Part shown: positions 1-44,808 of the stretch, one piece after another
Layout of the letters: every line of letters begins with the position of its first letter
How positions within the stretch are numbered: position 1 is the stretch's first letter
From: a virus
Lineage: Duplodnaviria > Caudoviricetes
Length of the DNA stretch: 64,000 nt
Reading direction: 5' to 3' (one strand)
Virus record (IMG/VR): IMGVR_UViG_3300037067_009230
Span: 1-64,000 of that record
Made by a program: the position numbers and the translations under genes
The notes under the pieces: generated by a model
What the model was told of the DNA's origin: nothing
Database searches by the model: none
Seen by the model: the letters and a program-made list of their open reading frames with translations, nothing else

Positions 1-321
1 ACCCCCAACATAACCATCATCTCTCCCGGTTGGAGTAAATGGTCTATACTTATTAGCATCAGACTTATCAAGGATCGTACGTACCCGTACATTCGTATCT
101 TTTTGAATCAATTGGCTCATGATAGGCTCATATACCTTATCAGTAATACCACTAGCTGCCGGATTCCAACTCTTTATAGTGGATATAGTCTGAGCATCGG
201 GTGAATATGTCTGATCCACTAATGGAATAGGTGTACGCCTCTCCGGAAACTGTATCTCACTATAATTCTGTAATGAAACGTTTGGAGTTATTAATGTTAC
301 AACGCCATCTAATGCTGCCAT
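1..321 (-). CDS. Partial ORF running off the window (MAALDGVVTLITPNVSLQNYSEIQFPERR...), probable tail structural protein
   Basis: ATG at 321, one base after the TGA of the upstream gene; I translated it open to position 1; not in the ORF track because it is truncated. Confidence 0.65.
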   Translation of the reverse strand, partial: MAALDGVVTLITPNVSLQNYSEIQFPERRTPIPLVDQTYSPDAQTISTIKSWNPAASGITDKVYEPIMSQLIQKDTNVRVRTILDKSDANKYRPFTPTGRDDGYVGG

Positions 322-24717: not shown

Positions 24718-25038
24718 ATGTGTGACGGAAATTTAGCAATGGCAGAAACTTTGAATAACGCAGAACCAACCCAATTGGGTATAGGTGCAGTTAGCAGTAG
24801 TGCTTTTGTTAATAGAGAAGGTATTGTTTTGAAAGTTGGTATGAAAGTAAAAGGATTTATTACATATCAACGCTCATATATGAGAACTGGTGACAAAGAC
24901 ATCACTGGTACTATTGTAAGCAAACATGGGAGATTGTATGTAAATAGCGATTCTGAACCCGAAAAGAACTATCCACTTTCAAAATTTGCTCACAATTGGC
25001 TAACTCAAAATAAAATTGCATGGTTGGATGTTCTTTAG
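24718..25038 (+). CDS. Cassette-borne hypothetical protein (array 1)
   Basis: 106 aa; reads through a half attC-like arm (QLGIGAVSS); stops just before the next attC-like site. Confidence 0.7.
   Translation: MCDGNLAMAETLNNAEPTQLGIGAVSSSAFVNREGIVLKVGMKVKGFITYQRSYMRTGDKDITGTIVSKHGRLYVNSDSEPEKNYPLSKFAHNWLTQNKIAWLDVL
24770..24796. mobile_element. Half attC-like site
   Basis: CCCAATTGGGTATAGGTGCAGTTAGCA, near-identical to one arm of the 40314 site; partner arm absent. Confidence 0.6.
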
Positions 25039-25153: not shown

Positions 25154-25429
25154 ATGATTTCAATTAAAAAAGCAGATTGGACAAAGAAAAGAGAATACTC
25201 AAAAGAAATGAAACTTGATGGATTTATTTCTTCCGTAGAATTAAGCGGAATGCACTTTACTCAGATTGATTCACTCGGAATTGATTCTCGAAAATTAGAT
25301 AATCCAAAAATACTTAAACAGAAATTTGAAGCAGATAATAATTTGCGTTGTATCTGTTTGGATTACGGAGGCAGAACTAAAAAATATTGGTACAAAGTTG
25401 GCGACTTGCGGAAGTTGTATTGTGCCTAA
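25154..25429 (+). CDS. Cassette-borne hypothetical protein (array 1)
   Basis: Bounded by GTTAGGCACA and TGTGCCTAAC (perfect complement); stop lies in the CTAAC core. Confidence 0.75.
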   Translation: MISIKKADWTKKREYSKEMKLDGFISSVELSGMHFTQIDSLGIDSRKLDNPKILKQKFEADNNLRCICLDYGGRTKKYWYKVGDLRKLYCA

Positions 25430-25483
25430 CTAGCTAGTAAACATACTAAAGGTATGTTTACTATACAAAAATCAGTAAATAAA
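25424..25483. mobile_element. attI-like anchor site, copy 1
   Basis: AAC-TAGC-TAGTAAACATAC-TAAAG-GTATGTTTACTA-TACAAAAATCAGTAAATAAA. Confidence 0.7.
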
Positions 25484-29320: not shown

Positions 29321-29450
29321 AGTTAACGTTAAATGTTTGTGCAGTTGGGGATTATAAACCACTGCACTGTCAAAATAGTACTAACTTAATAAATACAGAT
29401 TATGAGCGAATTAGCACAAGACCCCCAATTGCATAAACATATTGTTGTGC
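29321..29450. mobile_element. attC-like site (array 2)
   Basis: AGTTAAC-G...ATGTTTGTGCAGTTGGGG / CCCCAATTGCATAAACAT...GTTGTGC. Confidence 0.8.
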
Positions 29451-29704
29451 GTAGTTATTTATCATTCTTTGCAGAAAAACACAAGTGCCACATTGATAAA
29501 ATAATGGTTGGAATGGTTGGGGGTGATTTGCATGTATGGAAATACGACGAAGGCGCAGCAAATATTTTTACACAACTCGAAATCATATCCAATTTTGAGA
29601 CTGATGATAGAAAATGGATTTGTCAATTATGTGGCGAATTAGTTAACGGTAGAAATGTAACATTTGAAGAATATCACGAAGGTTGTGGTGGCCTCTGTGT
29701 ATAA
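29402..29704 (+). CDS. Cassette-borne protein with C-terminal Zn-finger-like motif (array 2)
   Basis: Starts inside the attC loop; CQLCG...H.GCGG; cassette ends GTTGTGCGTA / TACGCACAAC are complementary. Confidence 0.75.
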   Translation: MSELAQDPQLHKHIVVRSYLSFFAEKHKCHIDKIMVGMVGGDLHVWKYDEGAANIFTQLEIISNFETDDRKWICQLCGELVNGRNVTFEEYHEGCGGLCV

Positions 29705-29708
29705 TTAC

Positions 29709-29768
29709 GCACAACTAGCTAGTAAACCTACTAAAAGTATGTTTACTATACAAAAATCAGTAAATAAA
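29709..29768. mobile_element. attI-like anchor site, copy 2
   Basis: Two mismatches to copy 1 over 53 bp. Confidence 0.7.
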
Positions 29769-29783
29769 CAAAAAATTAAAGTC

Positions 29784-36341: not shown

Positions 36342-37027
36342 AATAACTTCTGTTTTATTACTTGTAAATGGGCAGCTACAAAAAGATCTGCTAGAACATT
36401 AATAGTGATTGGCTGCCTCATTAATTCAGCCTGTTCTTTATTTGTATAGAATCCAGTCTCTGTAAGAATTGCAGGCATTCTAGTCTTAGTAAGAACATAA
36501 AATTTTGCCTCCTTATCTTTATCTCCATCTATCATATCAGCTCGCATTTGCCACCCCATATTAGAAAGATGATTATAAAATATATCAGCTATCGGATCTG
36601 ATTTTGTCTTTCCGGGAGATGTAAATACCTCAATACCGGATGCAGCGTGTGTTTTAAACGCATTAGCATGAATTGAATGATAGTAGCATTTAAATTTATG
36701 ATCTGATAAATATTGCATGGTATTATTAGCCCTTTCAACTCTTAAAGGCACTGTAATGTCATCATCCTCTGATACTATAATAGAATATGGAAGGTCTAGA
36801 TCATTTAATTTAGATGCATATGTCCATGCTAATGCCCTATTAAATACCCCCTCATAAAAAGTAAACTCAGGATATACATACATTTTTGATGGTGCAGTAG
36901 TATATACACAGTCTAATATCCCACCGTGTCCCGGATCTATAAGAGGTACAATTTTTGAATCTCTGCCATAATGATATGATGGTATCTGATTCTTTATATC
37001 ACTGATAATTTTAAGAAGTGCTTTCAT
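36338..37027 (-). CDS. N-acetylmuramoyl-L-alanine amidase (Amidase_3), endolysin
   Basis: IDPGHGG, YEG.FN, SIHANA, PAILTETGF. Confidence 0.9.
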   Translation of the reverse strand: MKALLKIISDIKNQIPSYHYGRDSKIVPLIDPGHGGILDCVYTTAPSKMYVYPEFTFYEGVFNRALAWTYASKLNDLDLPYSIIVSEDDDITVPLRVERANNTMQYLSDHKFKCYYHSIHANAFKTHAASGIEVFTSPGKTKSDPIADIFYNHLSNMGWQMRADMIDGDKDKEAKFYVLTKTRMPAILTETGFYTNKEQAELMRQPITINVLADLFVAAHLQVIKQKLL

Positions 37028-37572
37028 TTATAAATTTGTTTGAATAATTCATAACTGATATCCCTAAAGAATATGTCAGATTTAAATCCAATAATATCCA
37101 GATTCCACCCCATAAACTGTGCTGCTGTGTATCTCATCCATTCAATATGTTCGATTAAAACCATAGGAAAAAAGATATAATATAAATCTTTTGGCATGCC
37201 GTTCTCTCGAACCATCAAAAATGGTTTTTTCTTAGCAGCAACAGCATCATTTTTACACTGGATCATAAACCTGTATATGACAGAGTTAGTCCTAATGAAC
37301 GGTGCGGTCTTTTTTAATCCAAGGTTCTTATAGAACTTAGTCTCCACACTATAAGGGAAATCAAATTCTCTGTCTACATTAATAACATCTCCGCAAATAT
37401 CACCACGTTCTTTCCATCTTAATCCCCCGGACATAGGTACTCTAACAAATTCATGCCCGGTCCATTCCTGTAATAAATGAGTAACATTTAACTCATTTCT
37501 ATTCCCTTTGAGTTTACTATTAATCCTGTTATTTGTAAGTTTAATGTCAAATAAATCTTCGGCTACGTTCAT
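37024..37572 (-). CDS. PD-(D/E)xK Holliday junction resolvase-like nuclease
   Basis: KG.RNE, RVP.SGG, GDVI, SVETK. Confidence 0.75.
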   Translation of the reverse strand: MNVAEDLFDIKLTNNRINSKLKGNRNELNVTHLLQEWTGHEFVRVPMSGGLRWKERGDICGDVINVDREFDFPYSVETKFYKNLGLKKTAPFIRTNSVIYRFMIQCKNDAVAAKKKPFLMVRENGMPKDLYYIFFPMVLIEHIEWMRYTAAQFMGWNLDIIGFKSDIFFRDISYELFKQIYK

Positions 37573-38039
37573 AATACCTTATTTATGAAATAATGTTTCC
37601 AAAGTCTTTCCTGCTCTGTCTTATCACCACTGGTCTTAATCCAGTATAGTAAAGATAGGAAAAAATTATTCTTCCAACCCCCATTTTTATCAAACCATTT
37701 TTTAAACTCCTTTGTCTCATTCTCTTCCTTTACTTTTTTCTTACTATTCTTTTCCATTTCAAGTATTTTACTAACTTGGTCAGAAAAAGCAGCACCCCGA
37801 AGAGTAAATGGTCTATTTTTTGATTTGTTAAACTCTTTACATTCGGCTATCCACATATTACGATACTTAGTAAATAGTGCATCGGCTTCTTCACCTTCAG
37901 TATCCTTTAAATCGGACCGGTAAGTAAAAAATAAATTTATAAGTGTGGTAAGAGTCTCCTGTTTCTTTGCTCTTAATCTTCTAACAAATCTGGGATCTTT
38001 CTCCTTAGTTTCGTTTTGAACAACCTTTTTCTTTTCCAT
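37569..38039 (-). CDS. Hypothetical basic protein
   Basis: 156-aa ORF in an operon. Confidence 0.7.
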   Translation of the reverse strand: MEKKKVVQNETKEKDPRFVRRLRAKKQETLTTLINLFFTYRSDLKDTEGEEADALFTKYRNMWIAECKEFNKSKNRPFTLRGAAFSDQVSKILEMEKNSKKKVKEENETKEFKKWFDKNGGWKNNFFLSLLYWIKTSGDKTEQERLWKHYFINKVL

Positions 38040-39985
38040 TAGTTTAAAATTAAATTGTTATTTTCTTTAGTAAAATTTATTGTATTAGCATATAAGTTAT
38101 CCAGAGTACTGGAATGAGATATTACATAAACACTCTTTCCTTCATCGGCTTTCATCCTAATTAAATCAAATACAGCATTTTCACCATCCTCATCCAAACC
38201 ATCAAAAACTTCATCCATAATTAATAGGTTGATATCTGTATTAATTGAAATGAGATCGTACATCGCAAAAATTAAAACGATATCTAATCTTTGCTTCTCA
38301 CCCCCTGAAAATTCTTTATAGTCTTTATTTAATTTATCCCCTAAAGAGCATATTGTCGTAAAAGGCTTGCTAGATTTCGTTAAATCAATTGCAAATTCAA
38401 TTGATATTCCAAGCCGTTCTCCATATTTGCGTGTATTCTCGTTAAGCTGGGCCAGCATAGCGTTAAAAATAAATGCTTTTATTCCACTGGCACCAAATCC
38501 CTTCTCAGACCACCATTTTATTATTTTAATCTCTTCTTGTAAATCCGTGATATTACTATTAAGTGATTCAGATTTAATCTTCATTAAAGTAATTGCTTTC
38601 CCCTGTGATGCTATATTAAAATCTGGAGCCTTTTCATTCTGTAAAGATTTTAACCTAATCTTTTCATTTTCTAATAGGACTATCTCAAATAGGGTATTTT
38701 CAATGTTATTAAGTTCTTGATATCTGGCAGCAACTACATTGTATCTATCATTTGTGGTAGTAATATCGTTTTTAACTCTTTTAATCCCTTCTGTGACATC
38801 ATCTAAAGCCTGTGTTAATTGAAGTAATTTATTATTTAACTCAAGTATCTGAGTATTTAAATCTTCAATCTCAGCCTCAGCCTCTTTGTTAGCAGTCGAA
38901 TAAATCTTTTCAATATTTGCATGATTAGTTTGATTAATAGCCTGATGACATACAGGGCATAATCCTTTTACAATAGATTCTTTAACAATACCTTTATTTT
39001 CCTCAATCTCTTTCTTAATTTGATTTATTCTAGCAGTAAACTGGTTAATTCTATAATTATTATTATCAATCTCAGACTGAATACGTTTCTGGTCATTATC
39101 AATCTCTACCAAATCCAATCGATACTTATTCTTGGTACTAGTGAGTTCATTATATTCCTGTTCAATCTTATCATGTTCTTCTTTGTCATAATCAAGAGGA
39201 GGAACAACTACTTTTAACTCATTATTATAATTAGTAATAAGAGTTTCAAAACCCTTAATATTTGATTCACAGTCTGAAATCTTATTAGCCTGATTCTGAC
39301 CCCACTCCTCACAAAGACGTTTATCCCGAACAAGGGTAGCCTCTGCCATAGTAATCTGAGAATTAAGGGTATCAGCCTCAGATATGATCTTACTAAGATT
39401 TTGATTCTTCTCAGTAAGATCCAGTTCGGCTTTATGCTTACAGATATTAACCCACTCTACATCAAATAATTGCTCAAACAAGGCTCTCTTATCTTTATTA
39501 TCCTGAGTGATTAATCGGGCCATCCTTTGACCAAACATTACAGAGTTCATAAATGTCTTAGGATCAGTGCCAAGGAGTTTATTAATTCTTTCCTGAGTTT
39601 CATCTTTATTAATTCCTGGGAAAAGTTGTTCATTATTTTTCCAGAGCATGAGTGAATCATTACCCTTTAAACCGTTAGTATCTCCCTTATAATCCAAATG
39701 ACGAGCAATGGAGTAATCTTCTCCATCTACTTCAAAATACGTTATTACTCTGGTTCCTTTCCAATTTGAGGGTCTTATCTCTTCCCATGAAGCGACTTTA
39801 TCCTGATTAGTTTCTTTTAAGTTTGTACCAAATAAACACCATACCACAGATTCAAATAATGTTGTTTTTTTAGTACCATTAACACCTTTAATAAGATTTA
39901 ATCCGGGACGGTCAAGATCAAATATTAATTGATTGACGATACCACGGAAACCATCTATTATTGCTTGTTGAAATTTAATTTTCAT
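38039..39985 (-). CDS. sbcC: SbcC/Rad50-like ATPase
   Basis: GVNGTKKTT Walker A variant, CPVC zinc hook, FSGGE signature, MDEVFDGLD, SH. Confidence 0.9.
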   Translation of the reverse strand: MKIKFQQAIIDGFRGIVNQLIFDLDRPGLNLIKGVNGTKKTTLFESVVWCLFGTNLKETNQDKVASWEEIRPSNWKGTRVITYFEVDGEDYSIARHLDYKGDTNGLKGNDSLMLWKNNEQLFPGINKDETQERINKLLGTDPKTFMNSVMFGQRMARLITQDNKDKRALFEQLFDVEWVNICKHKAELDLTEKNQNLSKIISEADTLNSQITMAEATLVRDKRLCEEWGQNQANKISDCESNIKGFETLITNYNNELKVVVPPLDYDKEEHDKIEQEYNELTSTKNKYRLDLVEIDNDQKRIQSEIDNNNYRINQFTARINQIKKEIEENKGIVKESIVKGLCPVCHQAINQTNHANIEKIYSTANKEAEAEIEDLNTQILELNNKLLQLTQALDDVTEGIKRVKNDITTTNDRYNVVAARYQELNNIENTLFEIVLLENEKIRLKSLQNEKAPDFNIASQGKAITLMKIKSESLNSNITDLQEEIKIIKWWSEKGFGASGIKAFIFNAMLAQLNENTRKYGERLGISIEFAIDLTKSSKPFTTICSLGDKLNKDYKEFSGGEKQRLDIVLIFAMYDLISINTDINLLIMDEVFDGLDEDGENAVFDLIRMKADEGKSVYVISHSSTLDNLYANTINFTKENNNLILN

Positions 39986-40011
39986 TTTATTAATAATTAA
40001 TAAAAAGTGTG

Positions 40012-40071
40012 TTTATTTACTGATTTTTGTATAGTAAACATACTAAAGGTGTGTTTACTAGCTAGTTAGCA
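40012..40071. mobile_element. attI-like anchor site, copy 3
   Basis: Reverse complement of copy 1, with the 5-nt hairpin loop inverted; G|TT core at 40065-40067. Confidence 0.7.
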
Positions 40072-40374
40072 GCCATTTTTAAGGAAGTCTGGTAGCTTCT
40101 CATAACATTCACTTAAAAATAATGGTCTGTCTTTGTAATGCTTTCGTAACTTCAAGAGCATATTTCTTTGATATTCCACCTGTTTAACAAAGTCATTGTA
40201 TTCGGTTTCTGTAAGTTCATTTTGTCCTTCTTTTCTAAAGAATTTATTGTAGAAATAAACAAGTGAATCTTTGCACTTTTGAAGTTCCTCTTGGTCAGCA
40301 GATAATAAACGGCTGCTAACCGCATCTATACCCAATTGGGTAGTTTCTGAGGTATTCAAATTTTTGTGTTCCAT
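40066..40374 (-). CDS. Cassette 1 hypothetical protein
   Basis: Probable start MEHKNL inside the attC loop; reads QLGIDAVSSR through the arm; stop in the CTAAC core. Confidence 0.7.
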   Translation of the reverse strand: MEHKNLNTSETTQLGIDAVSSRLLSADQEELQKCKDSLVYFYNKFFRKEGQNELTETEYNDFVKQVEYQRNMLLKLRKHYKDRPLFLSECYEKLPDFLKNGC

Positions 40375-40448
40375 TGTTACTTTATTTTTTAAGTTGATAA
40401 TTTTGTGTTTCAAATTGCCCAACTGGGCATAGCTGCAACACGTTAGGT
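40314..40448. mobile_element. attC-like site 3.1
   Basis: CTGCTAAC...CTATACCCAATTGGG / CCCAACTGGGCATAG...CGTTAGG. Confidence 0.8.
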
Positions 40449-40474
40449 TTAATAATTACCCCTACGCACCGGGA

Positions 40475-40645
40475 CTAATTACTATCAGGATCGTATGTTT
40501 TATATTTCCATCCTAACCATGCCATTCGTCCAAATTTCTTATCCAGTTCTAAATCAATGTGGGCCATTGACCAATTCTTACTGATTTCAAATTCCTCTGA
40601 TGACCCATTTTCTAATTCTACAATTATTGTTCTCATTTGTCGCAT
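40475..40645 (-). CDS. Cassette 2 protein (56 aa)
   Basis: Hand-translated MRQMRTIIVELENGSSEEFEISKNW...; below the ORF-track cutoff. Confidence 0.6.
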   Translation of the reverse strand: MRQMRTIIVELENGSSEEFEISKNWSMAHIDLELDKKFGRMAWLGWKYKTYDPDSN

Positions 40646-40684
40646 AATTAATTTCGTTATCTGATCTCTTCTGTAATTACTGAA

Positions 40685-40738
40685 ATCTAACTACGTGTAA
40701 AATTCATTGAAACGAAATTTTACACCTGTCCGTTAGCA
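40685..40738. mobile_element. attC-like site 3.2 (short, 54 bp)
   Basis: ATCTAAC-TAC-GTGTAAAATT / AATTTTACAC-CTGTCC-GTTAGCA. Confidence 0.75.
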
Positions 40739-40957
40739 AACATGCCGATAGAGGTACCCACTTTTATGAGCGCGTTCATCAACTTGTTGCATTAGTTCTT
40801 TTGCTGATTCACTTCCGTAAGGTCTGCGATATTTGACTTCTTCTGTGCCGTCTGGCCACTTTTGCACAATTTCAGTAGTTACAAAGGCACGATTTGCTAA
40901 CAATGTATTTACGCCATTGGCGGTTACATTCTCGCTGGATAAGTTATCGGTTTTCAT
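40733..40957 (-). CDS. Cassette 3 protein (74 aa)
   Basis: Start MKTDNL inside the attC loop; stop in the core. Confidence 0.7.
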   Translation of the reverse strand: MKTDNLSSENVTANGVNTLLANRAFVTTEIVQKWPDGTEEVKYRRPYGSESAKELMQQVDERAHKSGYLYRHVC

Positions 40958-41025
40958 ATATTCGTTTTTACGTTTAAAATTTGTACTAATTAATCGCCAA
41001 CAGGCGCAAATACTCACCGTTAGCG
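40895..41025. mobile_element. attC-like site 3.3
   Basis: TGCTAAC...GTATTTACGCCATTGGCG / CGCCAACAGGCGCAAATAC...CGTTAGCG. Confidence 0.8.
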
Positions 41026-41322
41026 GCAATTAAGCGATTTTATGTACTCATTAGCAACATAACTTGCTTTGCATTCATCAAACTCATTAAGTGTTGATTT
41101 GTACCATATCAAAAAATCGCTTAACAGTTCGCTTTGCCCGCTAACATCAGGTATAGTTAATTGCCTTTGCTCCGATTCATACCCGTTCGCTAAGTGCTCA
41201 GAATATTCGGTCATTAACCTAATAACAGTATCATAACTAAATGCTGTTCCTTCTTCTTGTCCGTCTGGGTAACGAACTTTCTGTGTGTACCCTTTTTCAA
41301 ATAAAAATTGATGTGCTTTCAT
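41020..41322 (-). CDS. Cassette 4 protein (100 aa), half encoded inside the attC loop
   Basis: Reads through the arm as QLTIPDVSGQ; stop in the core. Confidence 0.7.
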   Translation of the reverse strand: MKAHQFLFEKGYTQKVRYPDGQEEGTAFSYDTVIRLMTEYSEHLANGYESEQRQLTIPDVSGQSELLSDFLIWYKSTLNEFDECKASYVANEYIKSLNCR

Positions 41323-41418
41323 AATTCGCTCACTATTTAAGTTATTAAAGTTTATTACTCTTATTAAGGTTAGTAGTAATTTGACAGAGGCAACTAACCA
41401 TACCTGTGTTCGTTAGGC
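41139..41418. mobile_element. attC-like site 3.4 (giant, 280 bp)
   Basis: CGCTAAC-AT-CAGGTATAGTTAATTGCC / GGCAACTAACCATACCTG-TGTTC-GTTAGGC with a loop of over 200 nt. Confidence 0.75.
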
Positions 41419-41430
41419 ACAATAAAAAGA

Positions 41431-41640
41431 TTACGGTGTATCTCTGAAATAAGCAGTTGTGATATGATATTTTGCTTGTTCATCTTTTGGTAGTTTATGA
41501 ATTTCGTCCATAATCCTATTATACATCTCCACCTTTTTAATCTTATACTGTTTAAGTTCTTTATACCATTTTATGGCGAATGGTAGTTTAGTTATCCACC
41601 CAATTAAAATGCCTATTGCTAAAATAATACATGTACTCAT
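41431..41640 (-). CDS. Cassette 5 single-TM protein (69 aa)
   Basis: MSTCIILAIGILIGW; cores GTTAGGCACA / TGTGCCTAAC. Confidence 0.7.
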   Translation of the reverse strand: MSTCIILAIGILIGWITKLPFAIKWYKELKQYKIKKVEMYNRIMDEIHKLPKDEQAKYHITTAYFRDTP

Positions 41641-41658: not shown

Positions 41659-41788
41659 GCCTAACACATGCTATAAAAAATAGCGGTTTTAGTAGTTTGC
41701 ACAAGGTTTATACTTCTATTTAATTTCACTGTATTTTGATAAATTTGTTCTTCTATTTCCGCTACTTTTCATAGCATCAACGTTAGGG
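41659..41788. mobile_element. attC-like site 3.5
   Basis: GCCTAAC...GCTATAAAAAATAGCGG / CCGCTACTTTTCATAGC...CGTTAGGG. Confidence 0.85.
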
Positions 41789-41793
41789 TGCAT

Positions 41794-42006
41794 TTAAAAA
41801 TCCTTACACCAACTATCCAACTGAAAGGATAGACTGTCATATACTATTGTTTTATTTGGTAACTTTCGCCAATTCCAATAACCTCGTGGATATTCTTCTG
41901 TTGCAATAAATTTAATTTGCTTTTTGATTAATCCAAACAAAATAGGTTGTTCGCAAGTCAAAATGATGTTACCCTTTTCGTTTGTTTCTTTTTTAATTGC
42001 TTTCAT
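41794..42006 (-). CDS. Cassette 6 protein (70 aa)
   Basis: Start MKAIKKE; cores GTTAGGGTGC / GCACCCTAAC. Confidence 0.7.
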   Translation of the reverse strand: MKAIKKETNEKGNIILTCEQPILFGLIKKQIKFIATEEYPRGYWNWRKLPNKTIVYDSLSFQLDSWCKDF

Positions 42007-42026
42007 AAAAATTGAATAAAAACGCA

Positions 42027-42156
42027 CCCTAACAATGTATATAGCAAATTGGGGGTGTCGTTCCAACTTGTATATTTGTGCTGTTAATTTACTTCTGTGT
42101 GGCTCGATAGGGTAGCACATTTTAATCCCCAACTTGCCATATACTTAACGTTAGTT
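42027..42156. mobile_element. attC-like site 3.6
   Basis: CCCTAAC...GTATATAGCAAATTGGGG / CCCCAACTTGCCATATAC...CGTTAGTT. Confidence 0.85.
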
Positions 42157-42176: not shown

Positions 42177-43007
42177 TTAATCAACATTTGTGGGTAAATC
42201 CGTAAAAGAAAAAAGCCCACGCTCTTTTGCTTTTTCAAAGCAATTAGGGTTAATGTCACAACCAATAAAACTTCGGTTTAAGTCTTTACAAACTTCTGCT
42301 GTTGTAAAACTACCTGAATAAAAGTCCGCAACTAAATCACCTTCATTGCTACTTGCTTTAATAATTCGTTCAATTAATGATTTTGGTTTTTGGGTATCAT
42401 ACCCAAGTCTTTCAGAGTTAGTCGGCCCTAAATTATTCAATTCCCAAACATCATCAATAGGTGTTGAATCTTGTATTTTATAAACAACATCCCCATTTTC
42501 ATCCCTTTTCATTACCTTTTTGCCATCTTTCACATCTACCTTATTTTTCTTTCTTGGTGTTTCTAACGGTAATCTTAATTCATTAAATATTATTTTGTCG
42601 GTTTTACCATAAAATATAAGTATATCGTGGTTTTTAGCAAACGCCTTTTGTTTTATACTCCATTTATTGTAACTCCAAATAACCTCATTCACAAAATTAT
42701 CATACCCAAATATATCATCCATAATACACCGCATCCAATGGTTTATTTTTGTGTCCATTTGTAGGTAAATGCTTCCTGTTGGTTTTAATATCCTGTGCAT
42801 TTCTTTTATTCGTGGTATGTAGTGGCTTTCAATTTCGCTTCGTATTGGCTTTATATCTTGATAGTCTGCAAATCTTCTACCAGTACCATAGAGTATATCA
42901 CAATAAATTAAATCAATCGTGTTGTCTTTAATTTCTGCCATCAATTCTAAATTGTCGCAAATTCTAAGGTCTAAAAACCCCTCCCCATTTTTTTCTTTTA
43001 CTCTCAT
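42177..43007 (-). CDS. Cassette 7: beta-class N6-adenine/N4-cytosine DNA methyltransferase
   Basis: DNLELM, CDILYG (motif IV variant), TQKP..LIERII..SS.EGDLV.DFYSGS.TT (motif I), IGCD. Confidence 0.85.
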   Translation of the reverse strand: MRVKEKNGEGFLDLRICDNLELMAEIKDNTIDLIYCDILYGTGRRFADYQDIKPIRSEIESHYIPRIKEMHRILKPTGSIYLQMDTKINHWMRCIMDDIFGYDNFVNEVIWSYNKWSIKQKAFAKNHDILIFYGKTDKIIFNELRLPLETPRKKNKVDVKDGKKVMKRDENGDVVYKIQDSTPIDDVWELNNLGPTNSERLGYDTQKPKSLIERIIKASSNEGDLVADFYSGSFTTAEVCKDLNRSFIGCDINPNCFEKAKERGLFSFTDLPTNVD

Positions 43008-43048: not shown

Positions 43049-43176
43049 ATATAACAATGTATATAATTTATAGGCAGTTATGTTAATAATTCAATCTTTA
43101 TTTCTCGTTTAAAGTATGTAGGTAACTCAAAATTCGTAGCTCGAAATGCCTACAAATCATATACAAACCGTTAGCA
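43049..43176. mobile_element. attC-like site 3.7
   Basis: ATATAAC...GTATATAATTTATAGGCA / TGCCTACAAATCATATAC...CGTTAGCA. Confidence 0.85.
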
Positions 43177-43177
43177 C

Positions 43178-43378
43178 CTATTTTAAAATGAATGACTGAC
43201 AATCATCACATATAAAACTATGAGCATAAACAGATTTTAATTCGCACCATGAGCAATGACCATATGTGGCACCCGTATAGTATTTACAGTTCCCGTATTT
43301 ATAAAAAACAGGTGCTAACACAGGCTCAACTGCAATAGCTGGAGAAGTATGTTGCGTAGGTCTTACTCTTTTTGCCAT
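43178..43378 (-). CDS. Cassette 8 small Cys-rich protein
   Basis: Probable start MAKRVRP (or 43417) inside the attC loop; CKY..., CSWC, CDDC; cores GTTAGCACCT / AGGTGCTAAC. Confidence 0.65.
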   Translation of the reverse strand: MAKRVRPTQHTSPAIAVEPVLAPVFYKYGNCKYYTGATYGHCSWCELKSVYAHSFICDDCQSFILK

Positions 43379-43444
43379 GTTCGTTGTATTTTGATAATTA
43401 AGTATTTCAAATTCCACTACATGCGGTTAGCATCAACGTTAGAC
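43313..43444. mobile_element. attC-like site 3.8
   Basis: TGCTAAC...GCTCAACTGCAATAGCTGG / CCACTACATGCGGTTAGC...CGTTAGAC; more degenerate stem. Confidence 0.7.
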
Positions 43445-43831
43445 ACCTATTTCAAAAGAATAATCACTCCCATTGATAGTTTCTTTTTCATAATAATTAC
43501 ATAGTTCACCAAGGGAATAGAAAACAGGTATATTATGTTTCTTTGCAAGTGCTACCTCATCATCTGCGCCAACGCTCTCACCAGATAAACGCAGTACACA
43601 ATCACAAACTAGTAGCCATATATTATCTATAGTAATCCAATCATTGTCGGGTCTTGGCTGTACTACATTTTGAAAATGATTTAAAAGTGGTACAAAAGGC
43701 ACAAAATTTAAATTCATGAGAATATGTGCAGTATCTATCTGCCTATTTACATTTGAGATTTTATTACCCAGTGTATAAGGACTTGCGATATAAACCTTAA
43801 TTGAATCTTTAGTCATATTTGGGAAAGTCAT
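43439..43831 (-). CDS. Nucleoside 2-deoxyribosyltransferase-like (DUF4406-like) protein
   Basis: KVYIASPYT, CDCVLRL.GES.GAD.E. Confidence 0.75.
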   Translation of the reverse strand: MTFPNMTKDSIKVYIASPYTLGNKISNVNRQIDTAHILMNLNFVPFVPLLNHFQNVVQPRPDNDWITIDNIWLLVCDCVLRLSGESVGADDEVALAKKHNIPVFYSLGELCNYYEKETINGSDYSFEIGV

Positions 43832-44808
43832 TTTATTAAAATTAATCCATAGTTTAAAACCTTCTCATCTAATTTAGTGACTTCTGCATAGTTTTTTATA
43901 ATAGTCTCCGGTGCAAGGTCTGTTCTGAAATTATTTAACATTTCCTGCTGCTTAGTGGTTTTTGTATTAATGACAGGAGACCATACCACATATTGCTGTT
44001 GTTCCCACTCAGTTAACTCAGATCCCTCTTCTTTTCTAATGAACTGGGGAAATTTATCTGTGATGTCCTTAAATGATATAGTATTAGGATCATCTAAGTC
44101 TAATATCCAGAATCCCTTCCGTTTTCCAAGATCTCCGAGATCCCTATGCATAGGACTTCCGACATTAATAAACTTATCAGTTATCTCTCCACCATCATGG
44201 ACATGACCATTAAACACCATATCAAAATTATCAAATAATGAATCATCTGGTTGAATATGATCTTTCTCTGGAAAGCCAGAAGCTACCATCTGGTGCATGA
44301 GAAGATAACTTTTACCTGTAGTATATGTTTGTTTCACTTTATCCTGTAAACCACCAAGAACCTTTTTAAAATGCTCCGGATATTCAAAATATGAAATACC
44401 AAATATATGATTATTGTTATCGGTAGATAGCCGACTCATATCATTTAATAGAATGAAATTATCAAACAAAATAGCCAAATGTTGAAGGGCACTGGTAGCC
44501 GGTTGGTCTATGAGATTTTTACTTGCTTGATCATGATTACCAGAAATAGCTATAATCTTGATTAATGGATATTTCTTAAAGTTATTCTTGAAGCAGGCAA
44601 TAATAGCATCCTCAGCTTCAGTGGACATAATCTGCATCAAGTTATAAAGATCCCCCGGCAATAAGATATATTTTATTTCATTTACACTTGCAAAATTAAA
44701 CAGGTAATCAAGATATGCAATTCCATTATTTAACCTGCGGTTATCCTGATTGAATTTCTGATATTTATGCACGTGGATATCTGACGTAACAATAGCTAAT
44801 TCACTCAT
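43828..44808 (-). CDS. sbcD: SbcD/Mre11-like nuclease
   Basis: SDIHVH, PGDLY, GNHD, MHQ, NGHVH. Confidence 0.9.
   Translation of the reverse strand: MSELAIVTSDIHVHKYQKFNQDNRRLNNGIAYLDYLFNFASVNEIKYILLPGDLYNLMQIMSTEAEDAIIACFKNNFKKYPLIKIIAISGNHDQASKNLIDQPATSALQHLAILFDNFILLNDMSRLSTDNNNHIFGISYFEYPEHFKKVLGGLQDKVKQTYTTGKSYLLMHQMVASGFPEKDHIQPDDSLFDNFDMVFNGHVHDGGEITDKFINVGSPMHRDLGDLGKRKGFWILDLDDPNTISFKDITDKFPQFIRKEEGSELTEWEQQQYVVWSPVINTKTTKQQEMLNNFRTDLAPETIIKNYAEVTKLDEKVLNYGLILIK

Follow-up and report, generated by a model that had tools for sequence, protein, structure and literature searches.

The window analysed here, the first 64 kb (64,000 nucleotides [nt]) of a 76-kb IMG/VR viral contig (Caudoviricetes; record IMGVR_UViG_3300037067_009230; CheckV completeness, ~92%), contains a 3.8-kb block of small minus-strand open reading frames (ORFs) between an sbcD-like gene (43828-44808) and an sbcC-like gene (38039-39985). 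Consecutive ORFs of this block are always separated by one hairpin site of a single type. These hairpins are probably attC sites of a Bacteroidota-type integron, and the small genes are probably cassettes of which the ORF lies on the attC bottom strand, the loop of the site having been co-opted as leader, start codon, and N-terminal coding sequence.

In gene sense, each site consists of a CTAAC box, 6 nt, a 17- to 18-nt arm, a loop, the complementary arm, 2 to 4 nt, and a GTTAG box. Eight such sites lie co-oriented on the minus strand within 3.1 kb, with single genes as spacers, and a ninth (s0) is located elsewhere in the window (Table 1). AAC and GTT delimit all nine, and seven carry the complete CTAAC...GTTAG pair, the variants being s0 (TTAAC...GTTGT) and s2, which ends in GTTAT. 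Six sites measure 124 to 128 nt, the remaining three being 131, 50, and 276 nt long, with loops ranging from ~10 to ~200 nt. An alignment of nine such sites yielded 23 consensus pairs, with compensatory changes in 13; on the gene-sense strand, one G.T wobble is invariant. The hairpin, including its L boxes, unpaired central spacer, and variable terminal loop, is conserved by structure and not by sequence. In the longest site (s5), the long-range stem is preserved in the predicted DNA fold. A first-pass annotation of the window, made from the letters alone, had described this site as spanning 280 bp (41139-41418) and as coding for about half of a 100-amino-acid (aa) protein; the coding loop stood up to scrutiny, but the measured span is 41141-41416 (276 nt), and the codons ahead of the GTT box number 59 out of 100, within a whole cassette that runs from 41412 down to 41020. 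No Rfam family matched the hairpins. A loose hairpin scan proved as noisy as shuffled sequence, and a strict scan overlooked bulged sites.

Table 1. Sites, cassette ORFs, and anchor repeats in the window (bit scores are from the covariance model)
Feature	Coordinates	Strand	Remarks
attC-like site s1	43315..43442	-	128 nt; 88 bits; upstream gene 43439-43831 ends (TAA) within the s1 CTAAC box
attC-like site s2	43051..43174	-	124 nt
attC-like site s3	42029..42154	-	126 nt; 107.6 bits
attC-like site s4	41661..41786	-	126 nt; 122 bits
Long attC-like site s5	41141..41416	-	276 nt; loop of ~200 nt, protein-coding
attC-like site s6	40897..41023	-	127 nt; 93.6 bits
Short attC-like site s7	40687..40736	-	50 nt; same type as published P12002L_attC1
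attC-like site s8	40316..40446	-	131 nt; 102.5 bits
attC-like site s0 (ninth)	29323..29448	+	126 nt; 108 bits
Cassette ORF 43378	43178..43378	-	66 aa; ATG in s1 loop; 19 codons ahead of GTT
Cassette ORF 43007, DNA methylase (N6/N4, PF01555)	42177..43007	-	Start 43 nt after s2
Cassette ORF 42006/42120	41794..42120	-	Ambiguous: frame open from ATG 42120 (s3 loop); alternative ATG 42006 after site
Cassette ORF 41640	41431..41640	-	69 aa; start 20 nt after s4, outside loop
Cassette ORF 41322	41020..41322	-	100 aa; codons 1-59 in s5 loop and 3' arm; stop TAA in s6 CTAAC box
Cassette ORF 40957	40733..40957	-	74 aa; ATG in s6 loop; stop TAA in s7 CTAAC box
Cassette ORF 40645	40475..40645	-	56 aa; start 41 nt after s7
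Cassette ORF 40374	40066..40374	-	102 aa; ATG in s8 loop; stop TAA in last CTAAC box, abutting anchor
Cassette ORF 29402	29402..29704	+	100 aa; ATG in s0 loop
ORF 24740, behind orphan 3' arm (24768-24795)	24740..25038	+	Source of peptide QLGIGAVSSS
Anchor repeat	40003-40069	-	Positions 40003-40065 directly after last AAC, canonical attI position
Anchor repeat copy	25428-25483	+	Directly after the array's last AAC
Anchor repeat copy	29713-29770	+	Directly after the array's last AAC

A covariance model (R1) built from nine sites detected further members of the family in Polaribacter phage P12002L and in seven more viral contigs; the previously described P12002L_attC1 is a short member. Clusters of attC sites without an integrase (CALINs) are known from virulent phages, including P12002L (Qi et al. 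2023, PMC9892861), in which two sites were predicted; long sites, inverted polarity, and ORFs starting in the loop were not described in that work (PMC9892861). Apart from this site family, the phages that carry it have hardly any DNA or protein sequence in common, and G+C content among them ranges from 29% to 52%. Protein clustering of the nine phage contigs brought out only YopX and methylases as common families, with no shared recombinase; the YopX-family protein (PF09643; 21828-22340, plus strand, in the window) is the sole nonmethylase family common to four of the nine cassette-bearing contigs. A search with the sbcD-like protein as the query found no related viral loci.

On the bacterial side, a structural pattern scan of one genome per prokaryote species returned at least 120 loci, with ~8 expected by chance, and among the matches listed, nearly all loci were from Bacteroidota. 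Applied to these loci, the covariance model found, again among the matches listed, 180 sites in 80 loci, arranged in co-oriented arrays. In Flavobacteriaceae and other Bacteroidota chromosomes (loci L050 and L167-L170; genomes G008-G012), such arrays extend up to 66-85 kb and adjoin Xer/IntI-like recombinases. Three of them (G009, G011, and G012; 25-85 kb) begin ~1 kb from the gene for a 370- to 390-aa tyrosine recombinase, and the array-adjacent recombinases match two families best, scoring 176-223 bits on NF040815, the XerA/integron-integrase model, and 173-211 bits on TIGR02249. Because the model finds co-oriented bacterial arrays adjoining XerA/integron-integrase-like recombinases, we take the hairpins to be putative attC sites of a Bacteroidota integron type.

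A phage counterpart of this arrangement is present in viral contig G001 (94% complete), where cassettes, an AAC|TAGCT junction, and a 267-aa tyrosine recombinase lie together at 36384-39182. The recombinase is 42% identical to a bacterial array-adjacent enzyme and starts 70 nt after the last cassette junction, and this locus looks like a complete integron on a phage. In the window, three anchor repeats (56-67 nt; 89-96% identity), each at the canonical attI position, show the same junction as that in G001, and a similar inverted repeat was seen ahead of the first GTT in the bacterial array of G009. The window arrays thus resemble arrays that lack an integrase but carry attI-like anchors, and an integrase acting in trans presumably serves them; we infer that a Xer/IntI-like integrase of the host (in G001, a phage-borne one) is used.

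The cassette boundaries were determined by pairing the 9 nt after the GTT of a site either with the site's own AAC box or with the 9 nt that lead up to the AAC where the downstream gene ends; with a crossover in the 5' AAC, the classical cassette scar would place the match at the latter. In the phage arrays, the next box pairs at a mean of 7.0 of the 9 positions (at least 8 in 11 of 23 cases, nine of them perfect), versus 4.4 for the own box and 4.6 for unrelated boxes. Perfect matches in the window were obtained for the cassettes of ORFs 43378, 42006/42120, 41640, 40374, and 29402, with 6 to 7 of 9 positions paired in the others, and the same test on bacterial arrays gave 7.4 for the next box versus 4.7 for the own box. 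Since it is the next AAC box, and not that of the site itself, to which the sequence behind GTT is complementary, the hairpin belongs to the downstream gene, as had been proposed in the first-pass annotation, and an ORF that starts in the loop therefore never crosses a cassette boundary. A homologous cassette in viral contig G006 is 90.6% identical to the s0 site plus ORF 29402, the match spanning only the stretch from the s0 AAC box to the next AAC box. In four window genes, the terminal CTAA of the cassette provides the stop codon.

Long ORFs run opposite to the model orientation in 19 of 20 bacterial arrays and on the same strand as the model in phage. Because bacterial genes lie opposite to the model, the G.T wobbles mark what is canonically the bottom strand, where the integrase cleaves within 5'-AAC-3' of attC (PMC5027507). 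Judged by strand, the phage cassettes are gene-inverted relative to the bacterial arrays of the same attC family. The alternative of canonical top-strand polarity, with each site belonging to the upstream gene, had been considered on the basis of the longer 5' spacer and was contradicted by bacterial gene orientation together with the split-box test described above.

For five ORFs in the window, the ATG is placed in the upstream hairpin's loop, and the frame continues across the 3' arm and the GTT box (43378, 41322, 40957, and 40374 on the minus strand and 29402 on the plus strand); this feature, already recognized in the first pass, can be read directly from the sequence for all five. The arm-derived peptides reported at that stage are likewise present, but their pairing with coordinates was partly wrong: QLGIGAVSSS belongs to a sixth ORF, 24740, and the arm peptide of ORF 43378 is actually PAIAVEPVLAPV, differing from the one assigned to it. 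Three further cassettes (ORFs 43007, 41640, and 40645) start 20-43 nt past their own site. In P12002L (locus L009; 30.9-32.7 kb of the record), two annotated genes, P12002L_0037 and P12002L_0041, begin within long hairpin sites of the family; P12002L_0041 (50 aa) ends 3 nt past the GTT box and so lies almost wholly within one site.

Several observations bear on whether the loop codons are protein-coding. ORF 43378 has no in-frame start codon anywhere after GTT, and in ORFs 41322, 40374, and 40957, none is found within 12 codons of GTT, the first appearing not before codons 71, 66, and 31, respectively; in ORFs 29402 and 24740, an in-frame GTG is located just past GTT. Differences among loop sequences fall mostly in third positions, and the ratio of nonsynonymous to synonymous substitution rates (dN/dS), at 0.12-0.26 over 46 codons, shows that purifying selection acts on the loop codons. 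A loop-start ORF was defined as an ATG-initiated ORF of 35 aa or more that begins in the loop and leaves it by way of the arm; such ORFs occurred at 26 of 38 phage sites (seven contigs), versus 14 of 106 sites in bacterial loci (p = 5e-10). Of those 14, 3 look real (~3 of 106 sites), and these are on small phage-like contigs; bacterial sites of ~190 nt held no consistent ORF. An A-rich leader motif with the ATG at a fixed place occurs in 21 of 40 phage loops versus 2 of 126 bacterial loops. Of 28 loop ORFs, 21 are in the frame that takes GTT as a codon, and the one that reads TAG in GTTAG is almost unused. Finally, the loop ATG and N-terminal peptide are conserved across contigs that carry different bodies.

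On this evidence, we infer that translation starts at the loop ATGs. The first-pass suggestion that the site serves as a translation-initiation module fits well with the conserved leader and fixed ATG and with the lack of a usable start soon after GTT in four of the five ORFs. None of the five loop-start ORFs matched Pfam, and tblastn with ORFs 41322, 40374, and 29402 gave no matches among GenBank phages. For the product of ORF 41322, AlphaFold gave a low-confidence model (predicted local distance difference test [pLDDT] score, 58), which hints that the arm-encoded stretch (residues 56-71) might be the least ordered part.

The idea that the loop supplies an exchangeable N-terminal domain, for which the first pass had recommended a search for chimeras sharing one half or the other, was borne out by natural examples. 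A protein search with the ORF 41322 product returned four relatives that share residues 1-60 and diverge exactly after the GTT codon, and the underlying DNA has the same long site in each contig. The 59 loop-encoded residues thus recur in front of four C-terminal bodies that are unrelated to one another, and the junction falls immediately behind GTTA. Conversely, one zinc-ribbon-like body was found behind two different loop ORFs, and the s0 site was found with two bodies. Exchange also reaches into the site itself: in the family of the 276-nt site, identical arms and leader surround at least five unrelated loop ORFs in five phage contigs, each with a different body, and in one contig, the loop ORF of ORF 41322 is flanked by different, mutually complementary arms.

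We propose the following organization for a phage cassette. In gene sense, its 5' part would comprise the last C of CTAAC, the 6-nt spacer, the 5' arm, and the loop with the A-rich leader and ATG, followed in some loops by 50-85 further codons; its 3' part would comprise the 3' arm, the GTTAG box with ~7 bases specific to the cassette, the body of the gene, and, last, the complement of those 7 bases followed by CTAA, often as the stop codon. Crossover would take place in the 5' AAC, the position cut on the attC bottom strand of known integrons, so that a loop-start ORF would lie wholly within one cassette and circular excision would leave it intact. With the arrays transcribed towards the attI-like anchor, only gene-inverted cassettes would be expressed. 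The variable attC loop would have been turned to use as a 5' leader, a start codon, and coding sequence for the N terminus, and the arm-derived peptide would link the N terminus to the body, mostly in frame with GTT as a valine codon. The hairpin might also have some role in the mRNA.

A number of observations weigh against this proposal. No tyrosine (PF00589), serine, or HUH recombinase or transposase was found in the 76-kb window phage genome, and the bacterial array-adjacent recombinases remain below the curated cutoff of TIGR02249, with model positions 180-240 unmatched. In the one published test of a site of this family, P12002L_attC1 gave zero recombinants with IntI1 in Escherichia coli, the one site of that study to do so (PMC9892861). 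The 3' arm lacks bulged bases, and the canonical L'' extrahelical bases, which mark the bottom strand, are absent; asymmetry stems instead from the 6-nt versus 2- to 4-nt spacers and the conserved G.T wobbles, and the extra unpaired bases form the spacer on the side of the cleaved box, unlike in canonical attC, where they lie near L'' (PMC5027507). Four of the nine window cassettes (ORFs 43007, 41640, and 40645 and the ambiguous 42006/42120) were counted as starting after the site. Lastly, the chimera breakpoints coincide with the 3' GTT box or the interior of the site and not with the canonical crossover. Because they lie away from that crossover, a second process is needed to account for the chimeras; homologous exchange between similar sites, rare top-strand events, and the process by which attC sites and genes become joined are candidates.

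Going further, we speculate, tentatively, that lytic phages of Bacteroidota might keep their own circulating pool of gene-inverted cassettes, moved by Xer/IntI-like integrases of host or phage, in which the attC loop serves as leader, start, and swappable N-terminal domain and in which a common GTT frame lets N-terminal modules and bodies (often small and zinc-ribbon-like) recombine. If true, a DNA recombination site would be a translated linker and a domain-shuffling joint at once.

On one rival account, no site-specific integrase is involved. The hairpins could be portable homology, like the promoter(early) stem-loops (PeSLs) of T4-type phages, with general phage recombination shuffling pieces of ORFs; both flanks of a given site do vary independently among contigs, different loop ORFs are found within the same arms and one loop ORF is framed by unlike arms, these breaks fall away from the canonical crossover, and the window phage lacks an integrase. 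We nevertheless regard this as an unlikely account of the system, since it leaves unexplained why the arms are complementary and covary, why the cassette-specific stretch behind GTT is complementary to the one ahead of the AAC at the gene's far end, and why the same sites form arrays beside integrase genes in bacteria as well as in phage G001. Exchange driven by homology, of the PeSL type, would suit the interior swaps but not the split-box signature or the integrase linkage, and it probably contributes to the swaps without being responsible for cassette formation. Decidedly improbable, in our opinion, is an annotation artifact, in which frames would be open through the arm by chance and translation would start past the GTT box or the short ORFs would not be genes. 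The in-frame GTG of ORFs 29402 and 24740, the four cassettes starting after the site, the absence of Pfam matches for the five loop-start ORFs, and the poor structure model are what such an artifact would produce; it would, however, produce neither the dearth of starts after GTT in ORFs 43378, 41322, 40374, and 40957 nor the low dN/dS of the loop codons, nor would it keep ATG and N-terminal peptide constant in front of different bodies, hold 75% of loop ORFs to a single frame, or enrich them so strongly over bacterial sites.

Two readings in which the hairpins are not attC sites have less in their favor. An RNA element acting in the mRNA (in processing, as a stabilizer, or as a translational regulator), with the wobbles as G.U pairs and the likeness to attC superficial, would suit the phage sites, where the wobble pairs are always on the transcribed sense strand and the start codon is displayed in the loop, and a nearby twister ribozyme (see below) indicates that RNA processing elements occur in this genome. 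In bacteria, however, the sites are antisense to the genes, so that the wobble strand is not mRNA there; the split-box signature is a scar of DNA recombination, and Rfam holds no matching family. We therefore consider this reading very improbable, although the hairpins may have an added RNA role in phage. Extremely improbable are hairpins of the MITE type (miniature transposable elements with inverted repeats), inserting beside TAAC targets with a transposase supplied in trans. Homology does end sharply at AAC and GTT, the sites are common to otherwise unrelated phages and Bacteroidota genomes, and MITEs shared by Bacteroidota and their phages have been reported (PMC11602168), but target duplication is absent, the genome encodes no HUH transposase, the complementarity of the boxes extends across the gene and not across the element, and the strictly co-oriented arrays adjoin tyrosine recombinases.

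Regarding its wider context, the genome encodes a portal protein, terminase, DNA polymerase, helicases, and sbcC/sbcD-like proteins. Because the methylase gene among the cassettes is 70-78% identical in DNA to methylase genes of Cellulophaga, Flavobacterium, and Polaribacter phages, a host from the Flavobacteriia is indicated. A 148-nt direct repeat was found at both contig ends (window positions 1-148 and genome positions 76008-76155; 98.6% identity), even though the record is classed as linear without end repeats; the genome is possibly complete. An intergenic gap of the early small-gene region contains a type-P3 twister ribozyme (RF03154; 30339-30409, plus strand; 51.9 bits versus a gathering score of 39.9). 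Two pairs of internal direct repeats (57756-57818/57921-57983 and 60477-60587/60927-61037) have 78-79% identity, and the first pair also resembles a 54-nt stretch of viral contig G003 (91%).

Compared with known systems, the window arrays are most readily placed beside the sedentary chromosomal integrons of bacteria. Both have AAC/GTT boxes, an imperfect hairpin with an unpaired spacer and variable loop, co-oriented arrays, cassette ends derived from one split R box, crossover (putatively, for the phage) in the bottom-strand AAC, and a neighbor's stop codon that often falls within the box. Unlike in integrons, the phage ORF is on the bottom strand with attC 5' of the gene, whereas the bacterial arrays of this family keep a top-strand ORF upstream of attC; the phage ORF begins inside the variable loop and is apparently translated through the L and R boxes, and phage loops reach 200-300 nt and are protein-coding. 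The extra unpaired bases are in the spacer on the cleaved side, G.T wobbles conserved in position replace the L'' extrahelical bases, and the window phage has no integrase.

Integron cassettes are usually described as a promoterless ORF followed by a noncoding attC, and reverse-oriented, promoter-bearing cassettes (e.g., toxin-antitoxin cassettes) occur in chromosomal integrons. Like these, the phage cassettes have the gene antisense to the canonical direction of the array and must bring their own expression signals; unlike in these, the inverted form is the rule for whole phage arrays. We know of no report of initiation inside the attC loop or of translation through the stem in toxin-antitoxin cassettes. 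PeSLs, in turn, are ~50-bp promoter and terminator elements of T4-type phages that act through homology; they resemble the sites reported here in being short conserved stem-loops that lie among small ORFs where lytic phage genomes are plastic and that may aid modular shuffling, but they lack AAC/GTT boxes, the split-box signature, and a coding function. Exceptions to the promoterless cassette have been mentioned (PMC5027507).

The closest published relatives are the CALINs of virulent phages (PMC9892861), with which the window shares an integrase-less attC cluster, a lytic phage of a Flavobacteriia host, and a methylase cassette. While CALINs in lytic phages are thus already on record, the same does not seem to be true of the inverted polarity, the coding loops, or the arm-encoded peptides. 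The IntegronFinder 2.0 survey of 2022 reported almost no complete integrons in Bacteroidetes (PMC9024848), and large Bacteroidota arrays exposed by the same covariance model suggest that integrons were underdetected there. Unrelated lytic phages, as different in G+C content as those described above, would exchange cassettes by an integron-type route, in a pool whose polarity differs from that of their hosts, and the in-frame chimeras would provide natural material for the long-standing question of how genes and attC sites come to be joined. Compared with the attC sites known so far, a protein-coding recombination hairpin with a loop that holds most of a gene would widen the notion of attC and would indicate that very long loops are tolerated in nature.

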